Shown: piece by piece, positions 46,346 to 60,903 of the stretch
Layout: every line of letters begins with the position of its first letter
Numbering within the stretch: the first letter of the stretch is position 1
Origin: a bacterium
GTDB lineage: Bacteria > Zhuqueibacterota > Zhuqueibacteria > Residuimicrobiales > Krinioviventaceae
Reading direction: 5' to 3'
DNA length: 64,000 nt
Assembly: GCA_963675755.2 (NCBI GenBank)
Contig: CAXXMD010000002.1
Location: forward strand, 2,208,001 to 2,272,000
Made by a program: the position numbers and the translations under genes
Notes under the pieces: generated by a model
The model's database searches: none
What the model was told of the DNA's origin: nothing
Seen by the model: the letters and a program-made list of their open reading frames with translations, nothing else

Positions 46346-47281
46346 TTATTTTTCATTAGCCCTGGGATGGGCCTGTTTATAAATGCGTTTCAAATGTTCG
46401 GCTGATACATGTGTGTAAATTTCTGTGGTTCCCAAATTTGAATGGCCCAATAATTCTTTAACAGACATTAAATCGGCTCCGGAATCCAACAAATGAGTTG
46501 CAAATGTATGCCGCAATGAATGCGGATGCGCTTTTTCTGTATCTGCTACTTTTTTAATATAATTTTGAACAATTGTTGCGACTTGCTGTCTGGTAAAAGG
46601 CTCCTTTTTTTCTTTAACAAATAAATAGCGGTTATATTCCTGTTTTACAGAGTCTTGCACTTCTATTTGCTGCAAATACCGGCGTATATCCTCAATTACG
46701 ATACCGGGCAGGGGTAAAACTCTTTTTTTATTACCTTTACCTAATACGGTGAGTGTGCCGCTATTCAGGTTCACATCACTTGTTTTAATATTGATCAACT
46801 CACTTACGCGGATACCTGTTGCATAAAACAATTCCAGAATTAAATAATCCCGTAATCCTTCAAAAGTCTCTACATCCGGTAAACTCAATAACGCCTTTAC
46901 TTCTGATTTTGTCATAAAAGACGGCAATTTTTTATCCAGCTTGGGAGAAGCAATATTTGCAACAGGATTCGCCTCAAGCACACCCTTTCTTACCAAATAC
47001 CGGGCAAACATCCGTAACGCGGAAAGTTTTCTACCGGTACTGCGAGCCGAATATTTTTCTTTCAACAGTTCAGACAAAAAACCCCGCACTATAGCTTTTG
47101 TAAAATGTTCAGTTGCAAAAAGTTCGTCTGTAGAATAACGGTCTTTTAAAAAGCTGACATAATGATTTAAATCACGTCCATATGCTGCTATAGTATTTGC
47201 AGAACTGCGTCGTTCAACTTGCAAATGATGTAAAAATTGAGGAATCCAGTTTTCTAATTTTTGTTTTTCCATCGTCATCAC
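46346..47281 (-). CDS. xerC: Tyrosine recombinase XerC
   Basis: YATGIRVSEL, GKGNKKR, HPHSLRH, LLGH, TEIYTH, HPRA; topA-xerC order. Confidence 0.88.
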   Translation of the reverse strand: MMTMEKQKLENWIPQFLHHLQVERRSSANTIAAYGRDLNHYVSFLKDRYSTDELFATEHFTKAIVRGFLSELLKEKYSARSTGRKLSALRMFARYLVRKGVLEANPVANIASPKLDKKLPSFMTKSEVKALLSLPDVETFEGLRDYLILELFYATGIRVSELINIKTSDVNLNSGTLTVLGKGNKKRVLPLPGIVIEDIRRYLQQIEVQDSVKQEYNRYLFVKEKKEPFTRQQVATIVQNYIKKVADTEKAHPHSLRHTFATHLLDSGADLMSVKELLGHSNLGTTEIYTHVSAEHLKRIYKQAHPRANEK

Positions 47282-50133: not shown

Positions 50134-53100
50134 TTAATTGCCTTTACCACAGCAATTTTTATATTTTTTCCCACTTCCACAGGGACAAGGCTCATTTCTA
50201 CCAACTTTATTGGTATTAATCACCTGACGCTGCTTACCCGCCGGACGTCCCGGTGTGGGTTGGGCCTGTGCTTTACCCTTGGGTGGAGCCATTACCTGTT
50301 TAAACAACTCTACCTGAGAATGAGATGTAGATACCTTTTGCGGTTCGGCACGTCTCATTTCCCGTTCTTCAAGCTCACCACCAACATCCAGTACGCGGAA
50401 AAGAGTGCTTACAATATCTCTGTTTGTACTGTCAATCATTTTTACAAACATTTTGTAAGCTTCGCTCTTGTACTCAATCAATGGATCTTTTTGGCCATAA
50501 CCGCGCAATCCAATACCTTCACGCAGTTCATCAACACCACTCAAATGCTGACGCCAGTTCTCATCAATTTTTTCAAGTATATAATACCGCTCGTATCTGG
50601 CTACCATAGATTCGCCAATCTCATCTACACGGCGTCGGTAAATACTTTGTGCCCAACTACTCAGAATATTCATCACCGTATTGGGATCCATTGCCTCACC
50701 ACTTTCATCGTGCAGGCGTGGCGATTGTCTGAATACCAGACGGCATTCCGATTCCAAACGACGAATCTGGGTAGCATCAAGATCATCATTATTACCCAGC
50801 ACACCGCTGATCATCTGATAGATTGTATCATCGATCATGGTTAAAACAGAATCAAAAACAATATCTGTACTGAGCCGTTCCTGATGGTAACGCTCAACCC
50901 GGTCTGCATAGGTTTTATAGAAACTCAAACCCCATGCAACCAGTTCTTCTCGATACGAGTTTAATGTTTCACGTTCACGAGATGCCGGCAGAATCTTGTC
51001 CGGTTTTCCCATAAACATATTCTGAAAACTTGATGCCAGTAGCTGTTGTGTTGATTCGGCATCTTTGTTTTCTTTGATAACATTTTCAAACCTTGCAATA
51101 ATAGAAGATTCTATCAATTCTTCAATGGATGTATTGGCAAGTAACAATTGGTTATATACGGAAATATTTTCTCGTAAATGCTCCAAATAGGTATTTCTTG
51201 CCCATCGCATTGTCTGGTTAACAAGATCAGGCCAGTCTTTCAAGGCTTCAGCAGGTTCAAATGCTTTACCAAATACACCCTGCAAAAACTCTGCCTGTTT
51301 TCCTTCCAGTTCTAAAACATCCCGGCTGTGGTAAGCAGATGCCTGAATAAAACTGTGTTCAACTATTGCATTAATATATTGTACAGATGAAAAATAGCCC
51401 AGAATACGGTTACGATACAACATTTCATCCTTGGCGGTAATTGCCAGACCGTCAAGCCATTCCTGAACTTTTTCAATTACTTTTTCTCGTCGAATGGTAC
51501 GCATCTCATTTTCACCAATGGGCGGACGCTGCATAAATATCTTTTCAAGATCACTTAAAAAGTTCTCTGAATTCCAGGTTGCCGCTGGCGCATCAATTGG
51601 TAAATGACGATTAACCAAACCATTTACATAAATTTCCAGAAAAGTGTTCAACGGAATGGTTTTAAAAAGAATAAGGTCTATTGCTTTTTGCCCGTTTTCT
51701 ACCTGAGAATTATAAACAGATGCAGCCCATTCTTTCAATTTTGATTCAAAAGCATCAGCAGTATCAATATTGCTATTCTCAAGCCAATCTGGTTTTTGCT
51801 CAAAAATACGCTCCATTTCATAACCAATGCCTTCAATATTCCATTTTGAAATATCTCGGGTACCAGCGTTATGCAGTCTTATTTTCAACAATACCAGCTC
51901 ATCTATAATATCTTGAATATTACAATACCCGGTAATACGGTGACGTTCCTGCATTTGATAGAGGTGGCGCTGTTCTTTCAACTTTTCATCAACCCAGGTT
52001 CTCAAAGTCTCCCGAACACCACTAACATCCTGGCTTTCAAGTTCAGATTTGGTAAAATCAGGTTCTGCACCAAAATACCGTTTCAGATTTTCAAACAATT
52101 CATCCAGTTTCCAGGTTGAACGATCATCTTCTTCATCAATAAAGCGTTTGATCTTGGCTTCTACAAAATCTTCCGGCTGTGCAAAACCCAGCAGGTTTTG
52201 TCGTCGTTTATATATAATCTTTCTTTGTTCATTCAATACGTCATCATAATCCAGCAAATGCTTACGGATTTCAAAGTTGCGTTCTTCAACTTTTTTCTGA
52301 GCGCGTTCAATGGATTTTGTGATCATAGAGTGCTCAATGCGCTCTCCCTCATCCATACTGCCTAAACGACTCATAATATTTGTAATGCGGTCAGAACCAA
52401 ACAGACGCATGAGATCATCTTCCAATGACAGATAAAAACGTGAAGAACCCGGGTCTCCCTGACGTCCTGCACGACCACGTAACTGCCGGTCAATTCGACG
52501 GGCTTCGTGTTTTTCTGAACCAATGATCTGCAAACCACCTTTTTCAATCACATCTCTGGTAAGCTTGATATCCGTACCACGACCCGCCATATTGGTCGCA
52601 ATAGTTATAGATCCCGGTAGACCCGCTTTGGCAACAATTTCAGCTTCGTTTTTATGATACTTGGCATTCAATACCGTATGAAAGCGTCCCGATTCCAGCT
52701 CTTTAGTAACATCACCCTTTTTCAGCCAGTTGGCAACAGGAATACCGCGCTGGGTAAACAAATTACTCAGATGCTGAGAAACATCAACTGAAACCGTACC
52801 AATCAGAACCGGTAGTCCTTTTTCATGATACTCTATGGTATCTTTAATGATTGCATCATACTTTTCAGCCTTTGTTCGATAGATCACATCATTCATATCA
52901 TCACGAATAACCGGTCTATTGGTTGGTGCAACAATAACATCCAGCTTATAAGTGCTGTAAAATTCCTGCGCTTCGGTTTCGGCGGTACCGGTCATACCTG
53001 CCAGCTTATTATATAATCTAAAGAAATTCTGCAAAGTAATGGTAGCCAGTGTCTGACTTTCGGCCTGTACTTCAACACCTTCTTTGGCTTCCAACGCTTC

Positions 53101-56100
53101 GTGCAATCCGTCACTGAAACGGCGTCCCGGCATTAAACGACCGGTAAACTGGTCAACAATCATAACCGCTTTATTTCCACGTTTTGCACCGGTACGTCTT
53201 AATTCATTATCTTCCACAGCCTTGACCACATATTCAACATCGTTATGATAAAGGGTATATGCACGCAGCAACTGGGATATATTTTGAACGCGTTCTTCCA
53301 CGCGGTTATAATCCTGCCAGATCTTGTCACGCTGCTGTTCCAGCATTACACGTGGACGTCTCTCAAAATGGATGCGGAACCAGTGTTCAATCTCTTCATT
53401 ACGCATAACAAAATTCGGCATATGGGCATTAGACAGCAATTCTGTCATCTCGCGATCATCCAAAACAACATGGCGTGAACGCAAATGCGCTTTTTCTTTA
53501 GGAAGCAGTCCCTGAAGCTCTGCCCGACTGCCGGCTTTTTTAGTGCTCAACTGCATAATCTCATCGCGAAAACTCTGATACTCATCCCGGTAATTGAAAT
53601 AAGGCAATCCGCCAATCAACAATGTACGGGCGGCTTTTTCAATACCCTTGGGCATTTTGTTTTCATCCAAAACAAATAGAGCATCAATATCTACATTCGG
53701 GTCACTGGCAGCTTCTTTTAATTTATCCACAACCTGACTACGTTCAAAAAACAGTCCTTGTAGATTCTTGCGGCCGTTTTCGGTTAATCCTGAAATATTA
53801 ACAGTCGTCAATACCGGGTCTTCGGGATGCAGGGTACCACTAAACTGGAAATACCTGCGAAGCCAGCGTTGACGTTCTGTAAGGGTTTGATCCGTATCTG
53901 CCAGGTTTGTAAAGATCATCTGTATTGTATTATTGAGGCGTTCTACCTCTTCAAACCGACGAGAAGCACTGATTATCTCTGCGGGCAAGTTGAATTTTTC
54001 CTGTAGATGTGCATCCAGCTTTAACTTGTTTGACAGTTCATTTTTACCGGTGTCACGGCTCCAGGATTTAATTTCTTTATCTACATCGGCAAAGCTCGCG
54101 CCCATCAGGCGTTCCAATTCAGCGTCTGCTAATCCGGATACACGTCCATCCGCGTCAGTTTTAAAAATAGCCTCAGGTTTATCTTTATAATCACCCAGGT
54201 TTTTTTCAAAATGTCGTATTACGGCTTTACTTTCACTGCTGAAATTAGAAAGACATTCAACACCCAAAGCGGTAATGTCAAACCTGCTGGTTTCCATAAC
54301 ATAAAAATCATTGTTTGCAGGGTCTTCAAGTGTTTGAATATGTTCATACAGTGATGTTACATCTTTATCCATATCTTCTACAGCAAGAACATGAGCAGAA
54401 TAATCATAATCTGCCTGGTTTAGGGTATCATCCAACTGTTTTTGGATCTGCTGGTCACGTTCTTCAACCAGGGTTCTGTCAGGCAGTACATACAGATCAG
54501 GATTACCGCCAAGCAGAGCAATACGGCCTTTTTCTGTTATCTGATTTAAAACAGCACCATTGTCTTTAAACTCGAAATATTCCTGTTTAATGTTTTCAAT
54601 AGTGGTCACATCCTGTGTTGTTGCTGGATTTAAAAGTGCAATCAATCCATTAACAGTAGGCAGTAGCATAGGATCACCAGATTTTTGCATTGCCAATACC
54701 GCCAGCTTGCCTTCTTCCGTCAAACCGGTGATTGCGCCAAACTGTTTTTCTGTTTCAAAAAAAACATCGGTCAATTCTCTTCTTCTGTCAACAAGCGGAC
54801 GTTTCATAACCGGCTCAGCATCTACGTCTGCTTCTTCACGTACCATATCTAAAAGCTTTACAAAGGCGTCTACAATGGATTCGTCATACTTTCCGTTTGC
54901 ATTTGATTTCAGATAATCAATACCTGCCGGGGCCATACTATTCACAGCCCGATCCATCTTTTTTGTCATATCGTAAAATTGACGCCAGGCAGAGGCCTTG
55001 TCGCCTTTATTGTTTTGCAAACGTGTATTAACTTCTTCAGGCAAATCGTTCAATTGAAGAGCAAGCTGTTCAATGGGTTCAAACTCAGACTCGGCAACTC
55101 CGGATTGTATACCAATAAGGGCAGCTTTACCCGCAAGGGTCAGGCCATTACAGGTGCCTGTAATGGAATCATGTGTAAAATAGATGGAGCGGTTCTTTTG
55201 CTCACTGAGCTTTTCAAGCGTTGCGCTCAATTCATCCAGCTTTTGAATTTTATGTACAATATCCTGATCACGACCACCCGAGAGGAATATACGTCCCTTT
55301 TCGGTAATGTCTATAACATGGCTTTTTTCGTCAATGGTAAAATACAAATCGGCATCAATTTCACCCATTTGCTTATTAACTTCATATTGGCCCTGAATTC
55401 GCTCAATCAATTTCTTGACCCAGAATTCCGAAGTCAACAGTTCAAGCAGTTCCTTGTTTTTAGGATCTCCACGATGTACCTGAAGGATCTTGATACCTGC
55501 CTGCTCTTCTTCATTCTCGAGCAATTCTTTGCCTTCCCGCAACAGTTGCTGTACCAGTTCGTTTTGTCGTTTTGCCAGGTTCTCTACAGTGGGTTTTAAT
55601 TCTTTGTAAATATTCTTGGGTGCGCCAACAGCTCCCGAGATAATAAGCGGGGTTCTGGCTTCATCAATTAAAACACTGTCCACCTCATCCACAATTGCGT
55701 AATGTAATGGACGCTGAACAACAGACCAGACATCCTGAGCCATATTATCACGCAAATAATCAAAACCAAACTCGTTGTTGGTACCATACGTAATATCGGC
55801 ATGATATGCCGCGCGGCGTTCTTCAGGAGATTGATCTCCAAAAATTGCGGCTACGGTTAATCCCAAAAATTTGTAAATCTCGCCCATCCATTCACAGTCA
55901 CGTTGGGCCAGATAATCATTAACAGTGATAAGATGCACACCCTTGCCTTCTAACGCATTCAGATACAAAGGCATAGAGGCTACAAGGGTTTTACCTTCAC
56001 CCGTTGCCATTTCTGCTATTTTTCCTGAATGCAGAATCATACCACCCAATATCTGCACGTCATAAGGGATCATGTCCCATTCTATCTCCTGCCCTCGTAC

Positions 56101-56364
56101 AATCCATTTTTTACCACGCAGCCGTCTACATGTATCCTTGACAACAGCAAAGGCCTCGGGCAAAATATCATCAAGAGTTTCCCCCATACGTAATCTATAT
56201 TTAAATTCGTTGGTTTTCGCTTTTAACTCATCATCAGACAAATGCTCATATTCTTTAGCATATTCATTCACCGTACCAACTAGTGGTTCTAGCCGTTTAA
56301 CTTCACGTTCGGTGCTTGTGCCTCCCATAACCTTGGAAAGCATTTTTTCAATAGACTTTAACAT
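50134..56364 (-). CDS. secA: Protein translocase ATPase SecA, giant 2076-aa form with internal repeat expansions
   Basis: [76 protein letters not shown] motif [19 protein letters not shown]. Confidence 0.97.
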
Positions 56365-56530
56365 TTACAAAATCCTCGTTTATCAAATCTATAATAATTA
56401 TACCGGCAATACTTATATGTATACAAACTACACAAGTTTCAAATTTAATGGATTTTAGGCTAAAAATCCAGCAAATAAATCACGCCGGCATTATTAAAAT
56501 TGGCTGTTATCAAATTAGAGCATGGTGGGG

Positions 56531-57052
56531 TTAAGCGGGCAAATCCTGTTTATCCAGGCATCCTCTACCGGTTTTTTGTATTTGATTGTTCTTTTTCAAA
56601 CTTTCATAAACAGCATCCAAAATCCCGTTAATAAAACCACCGCTCTTGTCCGTACTATACAGCTTGGATAATTCGATAGCCTCATCAATGGAAACTTTGG
56701 GTGGTATATCATTAAAATTCATAAACTCACATATCGCAATACGCATAATAATGCGATCAATAATTGCAATACGTTCAAACTTCCAATTGGTGGAATGGTC
56801 CCGAATATTTTGATCCAGAACTTCCCGTTGGTCATATGTTTGGCGAATCAATTGTTTGGTAAACTGGGTAATTGTATTATCTACAACATCCTTACCCAAA
56901 ACCAGAGTCAAAACCTGCAGAACAGAATTGCCAGAGAGTTCCAGGGCATATAAACCCTGTAAAGCTGTCTCTCTGGCTTTTCTACGACTTGCGGGGGGTG
57001 AAATTAATTCAATTTCATCATTATTTTCAATAAACATGGTATAAAAGAACAC
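56531..57052 (-). CDS. nusB: Transcription antitermination factor NusB
   Basis: RRKARE..LQ.LY, W...RIA.IDR, PPKVSIDEAIEL, FINGILD; true start may be ATG 57037. Confidence 0.95.
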   Translation of the reverse strand: MFFYTMFIENNDEIELISPPASRRKARETALQGLYALELSGNSVLQVLTLVLGKDVVDNTITQFTKQLIRQTYDQREVLDQNIRDHSTNWKFERIAIIDRIIMRIAICEFMNFNDIPPKVSIDEAIELSKLYSTDKSGGFINGILDAVYESLKKNNQIQKTGRGCLDKQDLPA

Positions 57053-60153: not shown

Positions 60154-60903
60154 CTAATTATTTACAGATTGCTCTTCAGCTTCAGGTTTCTTGTTCTTTT
60201 CTATATCCCACACCATGATCCTGCCACAGACTTCACAATAGTACAAAGTATCCATCAACCGGATCTCTAAACCTCGCTGCGGCGGTATGCGGGAAGAACA
60301 CTCTCTGCATGCACCATCTTCCAGATATGCTAATGCTCTGCCGCCTCGGTTCACCCGGATACGGTCATAGGTATTCAACAAGGGTCTTGAAATTCCTTTT
60401 GCTAAATCATCCCGCTCAACCAATAATACGTCTTCTTCTTCTTTGGTTTTTTCCAACATCACTTCAAGGTTCTTTTGTTTATCTACAAACTGTGCTTCCT
60501 GTTCCTCAAGTTTTTGGGTGGTTTCAGTAATTCTCTCACCCAAAGTGGTCAATGCTTCATCAAGTTCCAATACTTCATATTCATGTTCTTCAATATTTTT
60601 TTCACAATTTTCAATTTCTAATGTCATTGCATCATATTCTTTATTGTTTTTCACCTGATATAATTGATCCTGATATTTTTTCAATTTTCCATTAAGCAGC
60701 TCAACTTCACCCTCAATCTGATGTTTGCGGGTTTCTTTTTCTTTTTTATCAATATTCAATTGTTCCAGTAAAAGACGTATGCCTTCTATCTCATTTTTCA
60801 ATTCATTTACTTTTTGAGGTAAATCTCCTCTTGCTTCCTCCAATGTCTGCAATTTTATATCTACTACCTGCAGTGCCATTAATTTTTCCAGGATTTTACG
60901 CAA
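60154..60903 (-). CDS. Coiled-coil protein with C4 zinc ribbon (DUF164/CT398/HP0958-like)
   Basis: Long coiled coil, NNKEYDA, C-terminal CREC...CEVCGRI. Confidence 0.88.
   Translation of the reverse strand: MRKILEKLMALQVVDIKLQTLEEARGDLPQKVNELKNEIEGIRLLLEQLNIDKKEKETRKHQIEGEVELLNGKLKKYQDQLYQVKNNKEYDAMTLEIENCEKNIEEHEYEVLELDEALTTLGERITETTQKLEEQEAQFVDKQKNLEVMLEKTKEEEDVLLVERDDLAKGISRPLLNTYDRIRVNRGGRALAYLEDGACRECSSRIPPQRGLEIRLMDTLYYCEVCGRIMVWDIEKNKKPEAEEQSVNN

Follow-up and report, generated by a model that had tools for sequence, protein, structure and literature searches.

A 2076-amino-acid SecA of a KSB1 bacterium, enlarged by internal tandem amplification of its own PPXD and wing modules

Few bacterial machines are as intensively studied or as well conserved as SecA. 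Its size is normally about 800-1150 amino acids (aa), with 901 aa in E. coli and 841 aa in B. subtilis. The window analyzed here, a stretch of 64,000 nucleotides from a bacterium of the candidate division KSB1, carries at positions 50134..56364 of the minus strand a complete secA gene, which is one uninterrupted open reading frame with an ATG start and codes for 2076 aa plus stop. This protein is the main and only SecA of the genome. It was doubled in size by an old internal tandem amplification of two modules of its own, a beta-hairpin-plus-helix module of the PPXD and a unit of the helical wing domain (HWD). SecAs of this kind are designated "giant" SecAs below.

The first-pass annotation of the window had described the motor as intact, which was borne out by the motifs, the Pfam domains, and the alignment with E. 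coli SecA. All motifs named there were found in the translation, including the Walker A motif MATGEGKT, DEVD, GYGQKDP, and the zinc motif. SecA_DEAD (PF07517) matched with 411.6 bits and was split around an insert, as for a PPXD located inside NBD1; P-loop_SecA (PF21090) matched with 230 bits, SecA_SW (PF07516) with 197.6 bits, SecA_PP_bind (PF01043) with 69.9 bits on aa 1021-1092, and SEC-C with 35.5 bits. NBD1 is represented by PF07517 together with the Walker A and DEVD motifs, and NBD2 (IRA2) by PF21090 together with NMAGRGTDI and the motif of the arginine-finger region. The C-domain, composed of scaffold helix, wing, and two-helix finger, is represented by PF07516 and by the superposition on the SecA chain 3jv2_B given below. 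Two NCBIfam equivalog models for SecA were passed, PRK12904 with 972.5 against a cut-off of 814 and TIGR00963 with 910 against 800. The highest score, 1096.8 bits in five stretches, was obtained with the long-SecA model PRK12901, yet this was below its cut-off of 1493. All five SecA2 models remained below their cut-offs, among them TIGR03714 (645.8/930), TIGR04221 (514.4/725), TIGR04397 (772.8/1085), and NF012136 (550.7/1100). Solved SecA structures matched the protein at an E value of about 1e-206, the matched chains (among them 6s0k_h, 1tf2, 3jv2, and 6itc) being 778-844 aa long. With a motor, scaffold helix, two-helix finger, and zinc tail of canonical type, the giant SecA should drive preproteins through SecYEG and power their export like other SecAs, as family membership, intact motifs, and its status as sole copy also suggest.

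The domains follow each other along the minus strand in the canonical order. The N terminus and NBD1 with MATGEGKT and DEVD occupy approximately aa 1-245 (55630..56364), as assigned from motifs, Pfam, and the alignment with E. coli SecA. The initial portion of the PPXD, approximately aa 246-362 (55279..55629), includes hairpin module 1 (aa 341-362) and is common to the approximately 1050-aa SecAs of sister orders; the identity among the giants is 0.76-0.81 in this part. It is followed by the PPXD expansion with modules 2-9, aa 363-1009 (53338..55278), which is absent from the sister-order SecAs, was recognized by profiles and a structure model, and has a ratio of nonsynonymous to synonymous substitution rates (dN/dS) of 0.05-0.16. 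The end of the PPXD with the canonical second hairpin and VDQFTGR, the end of NBD1 with GMTGTA, and NBD2 are located at approximately aa 1010-1340 (52345..53337), according to motifs, Pfam, and alignment. NBD2 contains an insert of 19 aa (aa 1210-1228; 52681..52737), which in the alignments is absent from 13 sister SecAs and from the SecAs of E. coli and B. subtilis, and which shows an identity of 0.85 to the window sequence across 20 other giants. The giant lacks the NBD2 segment of E. coli SecA called "VAR." The long helix of the helical scaffold domain, approximately aa 1341-1415 (52120..52344), was recognized by alignment and model. The array of six helical-wing units at 50515..52119 (profiles, alignment, model, and dN/dS of 0.05-0.17) is divided into H0 (aa 1416-1505; 51850-52119), H1 (aa 1506-1594; 51583-51849), H2 (aa 1595-1680; 51325-51582), H3 (aa 1681-1769; 51058-51324), H4 (aa 1770-1862; 50779-51057), and H5 (aa 1863-1950; 50515-50778). 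The region of the two-helix finger (IRA1; GYGQKDP) at approximately aa 1951-1995 (50380..50514; motif, alignment, and model) and the SEC-C zinc-binding motif at aa 2056-2074 (50143..50199; Pfam, NCBIfam, and alignment) in a basic C-terminal tail complete the protein.

E. coli SecA (6s0k_h) aligned in four stretches, to aa 6-288, 1028-1292, 1272-1434, and 1902-1991, so that the extra residues sit in two blocks, approximately aa 290-1027 within the PPXD and approximately aa 1440-1900 within the wing region. In comparison with 13 SecAs that come from the same class but from sister orders (1028-1077 aa once their starts had been trimmed), the extra blocks comprise approximately aa 363-1009 and approximately aa 1393-1888, about 1100 residues in total. 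Both comparisons place the additional residues where the first-pass annotation had seen them. The identity of the 20 other giants to the window sequence is 0.33-0.43 and 0.28-0.53 in the larger pieces of the blocks and rises to about 0.65-0.89 over most of the core. By composition, the arrays are soluble and mildly acidic, with an isoelectric point (pI) of 5.0-5.2 compared to 9.6 for the C-terminal tail, and have no hydrophobic excess.

In the PPXD block, the motif [YF][FY]x[DE]...[LI]TExG starts nine times, at aa 341, 395, 463, 535, 596, 687, 733, 838, and 897. When a profile of each module was compared with the whole region, 35 of the 41 off-diagonal alignments started no more than 2 residues from another motif position, with E values from 1.5e-6 to about 0.2; the reversed region as a control yielded a best E value of 0.0066 and otherwise 0.08-0.56. 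Modules 1, 5, 6, and 4 could be mapped onto the single hairpin of the sister SecAs with E values of 2.1e-15, 1.6e-6, 3e-4, and 7e-3, respectively. The tail after the hairpin of the sisters (NDPELFVLPD in L052) has its counterpart after module 5 in a stretch of 11 aa (aa 619-629), which is 94% conserved among the giants and continues the ancestral module. An AlphaFold2 model of aa 228-1108 displayed a two-stranded hairpin followed by a short helix at all nine positions, with longer helices in between. The mean predicted local distance difference test score (pLDDT) was 78.5, mostly 75-95 over the expansion and low at the ends, where NBD1 was missing. Foldseek with this model gave no match at an E value of 0.001 or below. 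A likeness to tetratricopeptide repeats (TPR) was discarded: VIA-align gave only Z scores below 8, on three helices (model residues 33-102), and such values are also reached by helical segments by chance. No new fold is claimed for the block. As judged from profiles and model, the PPXD block is a series of nine hairpin-plus-helix modules derived from a single ancestral module.

The C-terminal block was cut by eye into six units of approximately 89 aa, and one profile per unit, built from 21 orthologues, was used for pairwise profile-profile comparison. The E values were 2.6e-16 for H0-H2, 1.3e-10 for H1-H3, 3.1e-9 for H0-H1, 1.8e-8 for H1-H5, and 8.8e-8 for H1-H2, with all alignments in register, and all 15 reversed-sequence controls remained at 0.009 or above. 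H0, H1, H2, and H5 each mapped onto the single wing domain of the sisters (E values from 8.5e-12 to 1.7e-3), and the single canonical wing domain of E. coli SecA aligned in two halves, one with the beginning of H0 and the other with the end of H5. AlphaFold2 predicted aa 1335-2000 to be all-helical, with a pLDDT of 88.2 and a predicted template modeling score (pTM) of 0.82, and Foldseek found only SecA chains at an E value of 0.001 or below. With VIA-align, the model was superposed on the C-domain of B. subtilis SecA (3jv2_B) with a Z score of 19.1 and a root mean square deviation of 2.1 Å over 175 residues, which were spread over model residues 38-660. This superposition indicates that the scaffold helix, the wing, and the two-helix finger keep their usual arrangement and that the extra units extend from the wing. 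By profiles and model, the block thus consists of six in-register copies of an HWD unit of about 89 aa. A complex prediction of the PPXD array with the wing array, run without controls, resulted in a score of 0.05 and a mark of 0.32 and is given no weight for or against a contact.

Neither block is foreign. Pfam revealed no intein and no foreign family in the protein at an E value of 1 or below except for six chance-level rows below the cut-offs, and the DEAD and Helicase_C rows reflect the helicase fold of SecA itself. The extra blocks matched modules of SecA, and the fold searches, weak as negatives, returned SecA or nothing significant. The profiles, the mapping onto the sisters, the folds, and the Pfam results together mean that the first-pass annotation was correct in regarding both blocks as diverged tandem copies of sub-domains of SecA, namely, nine hairpin modules and six wing units.

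SecA_DEAD and P-loop_SecA matched no frame other than the 2076-aa frame in the whole genome (6.48 Mb in 3 contigs, 98% complete), and no second secA of normal size was found. A complete chromosome of 6.5 Mb in a single contig from the same genus contained a 97%-identical copy, and its SecA matches were again confined to the 2076-aa frame. The genome possesses one SecY frame of ordinary size, 453 aa. Upstream of secA are recJ, a gene for a class IV aminotransferase, and nusB; downstream are smg/DUF494, topA, a gene for an XerC/D-type recombinase, and hprK. The GC content is 0.38-0.44 along secA and similar in the flanks. Host-like composition and housekeeping neighbors such as nusB and smg had been noted before, together with the suggestion that this may be the main SecA, and the neighbor annotation, the GC content, and the genome search agree with all three points. 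The tyrosine recombinase of the XerC/D type at 46346-47281 (minus strand), which adjoins topA, and a CT398-like coiled-coil hairpin protein at 60154-60903 (minus strand), upstream of recJ, look like ordinary housekeeping context.

The giant form is characteristic of the entire order, which was sampled with 41 genomes from five families and 21 genera. An intact SecA frame of 2060-2166 aa was present in 34 of them, and in another 6 the same split-domain signature occurred in frames cut by contig ends or by a frame change. The remaining one (G016, 78% complete) yielded no more than a short SecA-like gene. In the genomes sampled more widely, 121 from the class and 151 from the phylum, no SecA frame outside the order was longer than 1183 aa; these counts include the unpublished G085 and G116, on which no claim rests. 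With the PPXD block as query, a word-indexed search retrieved 40 proteins, comprising 38 SecAs of 2049-2111 aa, the one from the window included, and 2 cut gene calls. This block was also used for an exhaustive HMMER scan of 1.84 billion representatives, which returned 6 proteins, 5 of them from the giant-SecA clade. The sixth (P0044, 3076 aa) is an immunoglobulin (Ig)-repeat surface protein with a Por secretion tail from outside this clade and was treated as spurious. On 977 shared columns, 21 giants formed one clade in FastTree with a Shimodaira-Hasegawa (SH)-like support of 100, sister to a clade of other KSB1 SecAs plus two Calditrichota-type SecAs. This indicates that the expansion happened once, before the order diversified. 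The stem of the giants measures 0.59 changes per site compared to 0.07-0.15 for neighboring stems in these core columns, so that the motor itself changed quickly when the arrays arose.

Candidates for intermediate forms were rejected. P0038 (1575 aa) and P0027 (1429 aa) are cut gene calls, and the shorter carriers of the wing block (P0045-P0047) are only fragments of giant SecAs. SecAs of 1120-1183 aa from other classes were also considered. Six of the seven fetched (L081-L084, L086, and L087, with 1126-1183 aa) contain a conserved insert of approximately 64 aa in NBD2 after the equivalent of L052 residue 672; the longest frame of the seventh, L085, is not a SecA, and it was left out. The site of this insert differs from those of the expansions in the giants. 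Because the extra residues represent a separate NBD2 insert, these forms are not intermediates.

For four pairs of relatives, a fifth pair being saturated, dN/dS was 0.02-0.05 for the core, compared to 0.05-0.16 for the PPXD block and 0.05-0.17 for the wing block. The identity of wing units was 0.26-0.62 between orthologous and 0.13-0.36 between paralogous units. Unit lengths varied by no more than 7 residues over 32 sequences, and 3 of the 6 units were invariant in length. These patterns of substitution and length indicate a high age of the arrays and selection that maintains them as folded protein.

The course of events was as follows. The beta-hairpin-plus-helix module of the PPXD bulb was amplified in tandem from one copy to nine and the approximately 89-aa helical wing unit from one copy to six; both amplifications predate the radiation of the order and were kept under purifying selection in every family sampled. 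PMC5412566 describes that the PBD (PPXD) swivels between states, that the signal-peptide groove is located between the PBD and IRA1, and that all four SecA domains together form a peripheral cytoplasmic platform, on which mature domains of up to the size of SecA dock. The preprotein clamp and the signal-peptide groove have two mobile elements next to them, the PPXD and the wing, and the two arrays may therefore enlarge the cytoplasmic surface on which unfolded clients are received or retained, both ahead of threading and in its course. A larger surface of this kind, for docking or holding, is our leading guess for the arrays, although a tentative one. In B. subtilis SecA, a bound peptide extends the two-stranded sheet at the stem of the PPXD by one strand, and nine exposed hairpins could offer similar sites for strand addition. 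It is less probable, and rather unlikely by itself, that both arrays jointly form a large movable receiving platform or cage in which long unfolded clients are retained at the SecYEG mouth, for example, through client strands that pair with exposed hairpin edges. If this were true, the motor would carry its own holdase and chaperoning would be coupled to translocation; we know of no Sec system with such a coupling.

Several points weigh against this view of the arrays. Some pairs of hairpins are related no better than at an E value of 1e-2. H4 is weakly related to the other wing units, with a best E value of 9.8e-5 (to H1, in register), and H3 is tied to the remaining units via H1 only. The AlphaFold2 models were built on a shallow alignment of 32 rows from one order, and the pTM of 0.57 for the PPXD model means that the mutual arrangement of its modules is uncertain; "arms" would describe a topology and no measured shape. 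Constraint on the arrays is 2-5 times weaker than on the core. SecB occurs in 5 of the 121 genomes of the class, 2 of these above the Pfam cut-off, and is scarce with either type of SecA, while trigger factor is present in 116 of the 121 with both types. With no loss of SecB or trigger factor alongside the giant form, a holdase replacing a lost chaperone is not supported.

The size could in principle be an artefact, resulting from misassembly, a fused gene call, an intein, or a foreign mobile insertion. Internal repeats can cause assembly errors, and the gene is indeed split in a few assemblies. In G010, it was read in two frames of 804 aa and 1324 aa (L068, G010:C1), with the break at approximately nucleotides 2728-2817 of the locus or aa 770-799, and P0027 and P0045 are on one contig. 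The split in G010 could be a one-base indel in the PPXD array, either an assembly error or a real frameshift. The repeats of the window's SecA are only 13-36% identical as protein and thus too diverged to mislead an assembler. Logan contigs from two runs of one sample covered positions 50527-56600 and 50513-56493 with 0 differences, two contigs from a run of another study were collinear and showed one gap each besides 152 and 343 differences, and 34 of 41 independent assemblies contained the same intact frame. Short "joints" among the Logan contigs, with sides of fewer than 40 letters, were read as conserved SecA motifs of other organisms. Misassembly is excluded by these comparisons, and with no intein or foreign Pfam family and nothing but SecA or insignificant matches in the fold searches, an artefact of any kind is extremely improbable. 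It is also highly unlikely that the giant is an accessory, SecA2-like motor for giant or unusual substrates, with the general SecA encoded elsewhere. Some genomes of the class carry an extra divergent SecA-like paralogue of 808-856 aa, which could be taken to favor such a division of labor. This paralogue, however, is located on a long branch (1.56 changes per site for the stem of the two sampled copies, L066, G010:C5, and L067, G045:C20) and is also found together with SecAs of approximately 1050 aa; the giant scores below all five SecA2 cut-offs and resides in a housekeeping neighborhood, and neither the window's genome nor the closed genome of the same genus contains another SecA_DEAD or P-loop_SecA match.

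The arrays may have come from replication slippage or unequal recombination and become entrenched with no role for substrates, being kept only for folding and for not disturbing the motor, as in constructive neutral evolution. The 2- to 5-fold-faster evolution of the arrays compared to the core, an orthologous identity as low as 0.26 for H3, the failure to find an accompanying partner gene or chaperone loss, and the unit alignment, in which no function-specific motif is conserved across the units, would all agree with this. A dN/dS of 0.05-0.17 nevertheless represents strong purifying selection, unit number and length are kept in 32 of 32 aligned sequences from five families, and loss of an array was not seen in any lineage of the order. 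Moreover, two separate expansions, both on mobile domains at the side of the clamp, occur together with no surviving form that has a single array, so that the neutral origin is possible but somewhat doubtful. Alternatively, the arrays may dock other machinery, such as the ribosome, SecDF/YidC, or other export systems, or mediate self-association of SecA, instead of receiving clients. Helical and hairpin repeats are typical interaction scaffolds, and the arrays are repetitive, soluble, and mildly acidic, in contrast to the basic C-terminal tail; a candidate partner was not identified, SecY is of normal length, and the flanking genes are unrelated housekeeping genes, which leaves such a scaffold an unlikely explanation.

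By all criteria of sequence and fold that were applied to it, the protein is a SecA. In comparison with other SecAs, the giant form shares with the canonical proteins the order of the domains (NBD1 with the PPXD, NBD2, scaffold helix, wing, finger, and zinc tail) and the catalytic motifs; it differs in having nine hairpin modules instead of one and six wing units instead of one. Its nearest relatives by sequence and tree are the Bacteroidota-type long SecA (PRK12901, a model of 1118 positions), the approximately 1030-1180-aa SecAs of other KSB1 orders, and those of Calditrichota. In these long-type SecAs and in the giant alike, the PPXD begins with an extended helical stretch (aa 246-340 of the giant), whereas the sister SecAs contain one hairpin module and one wing unit. 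SecA2 proteins (TIGR03714, TIGR04221, TIGR04397, and NF012136) belong to the same overall fold family, but the giant scores below their cut-offs and is the sole SecA of its genome. The giant multi-domain proteins of Omnitrophota and Actinobacteriota are, as described in 10.1101/2023.11.21.568195, also very large and carry SecA_DEAD and preprotein-binding domains; unlike these, the KSB1 protein is a complete SecA composed of SecA parts only, is present as sole copy, and has its wing multiplied, not lost.

The first-pass annotation knew of no described SecA with such an architecture. No published account of a similarly large SecA, or of one in which PPXD or wing modules are repeated, was found in the literature as searched without supplements and without a dedicated survey of SecA diversity. 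Sequences of giant SecAs are already public under the generic names "SEC-C domain-containing protein" and "hypothetical protein," and recognition of the architecture would improve their annotation. As a variant of a known motor, the giant SecA is real, well delimited, and present throughout its clade. Throughout an entire order, the sole SecA is a protein of approximately 235 kDa, a mass taken from the first-pass estimate, in which the multiplied elements are exactly the two mobile ones that border the preprotein clamp. This is a natural experiment on the roles of the PPXD and the wing domain and on the load that a swiveling PPXD can carry, and it shows how an essential motor can grow through amplification of internal repeats.

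Additional SecA-like genes were observed in a few of the genomes. The divergent 808-856-aa paralogue is present in G010, an assembly of 5 contigs, and in G013, G045, G048, G067, and G068 and is absent from the window's genome; it occurs with the giant SecA as well as with the approximately 1050-aa type. It may correspond to the "secondary SecA_DEAD domain proteins" to which the title of PMC4452313 refers. G004, a genome with 6% contamination, contains besides the giant a canonical-looking SecA of 934 aa (L065, G004:C23), which falls outside the KSB1/Calditrichota clade and is therefore probably the result of contamination or transfer.

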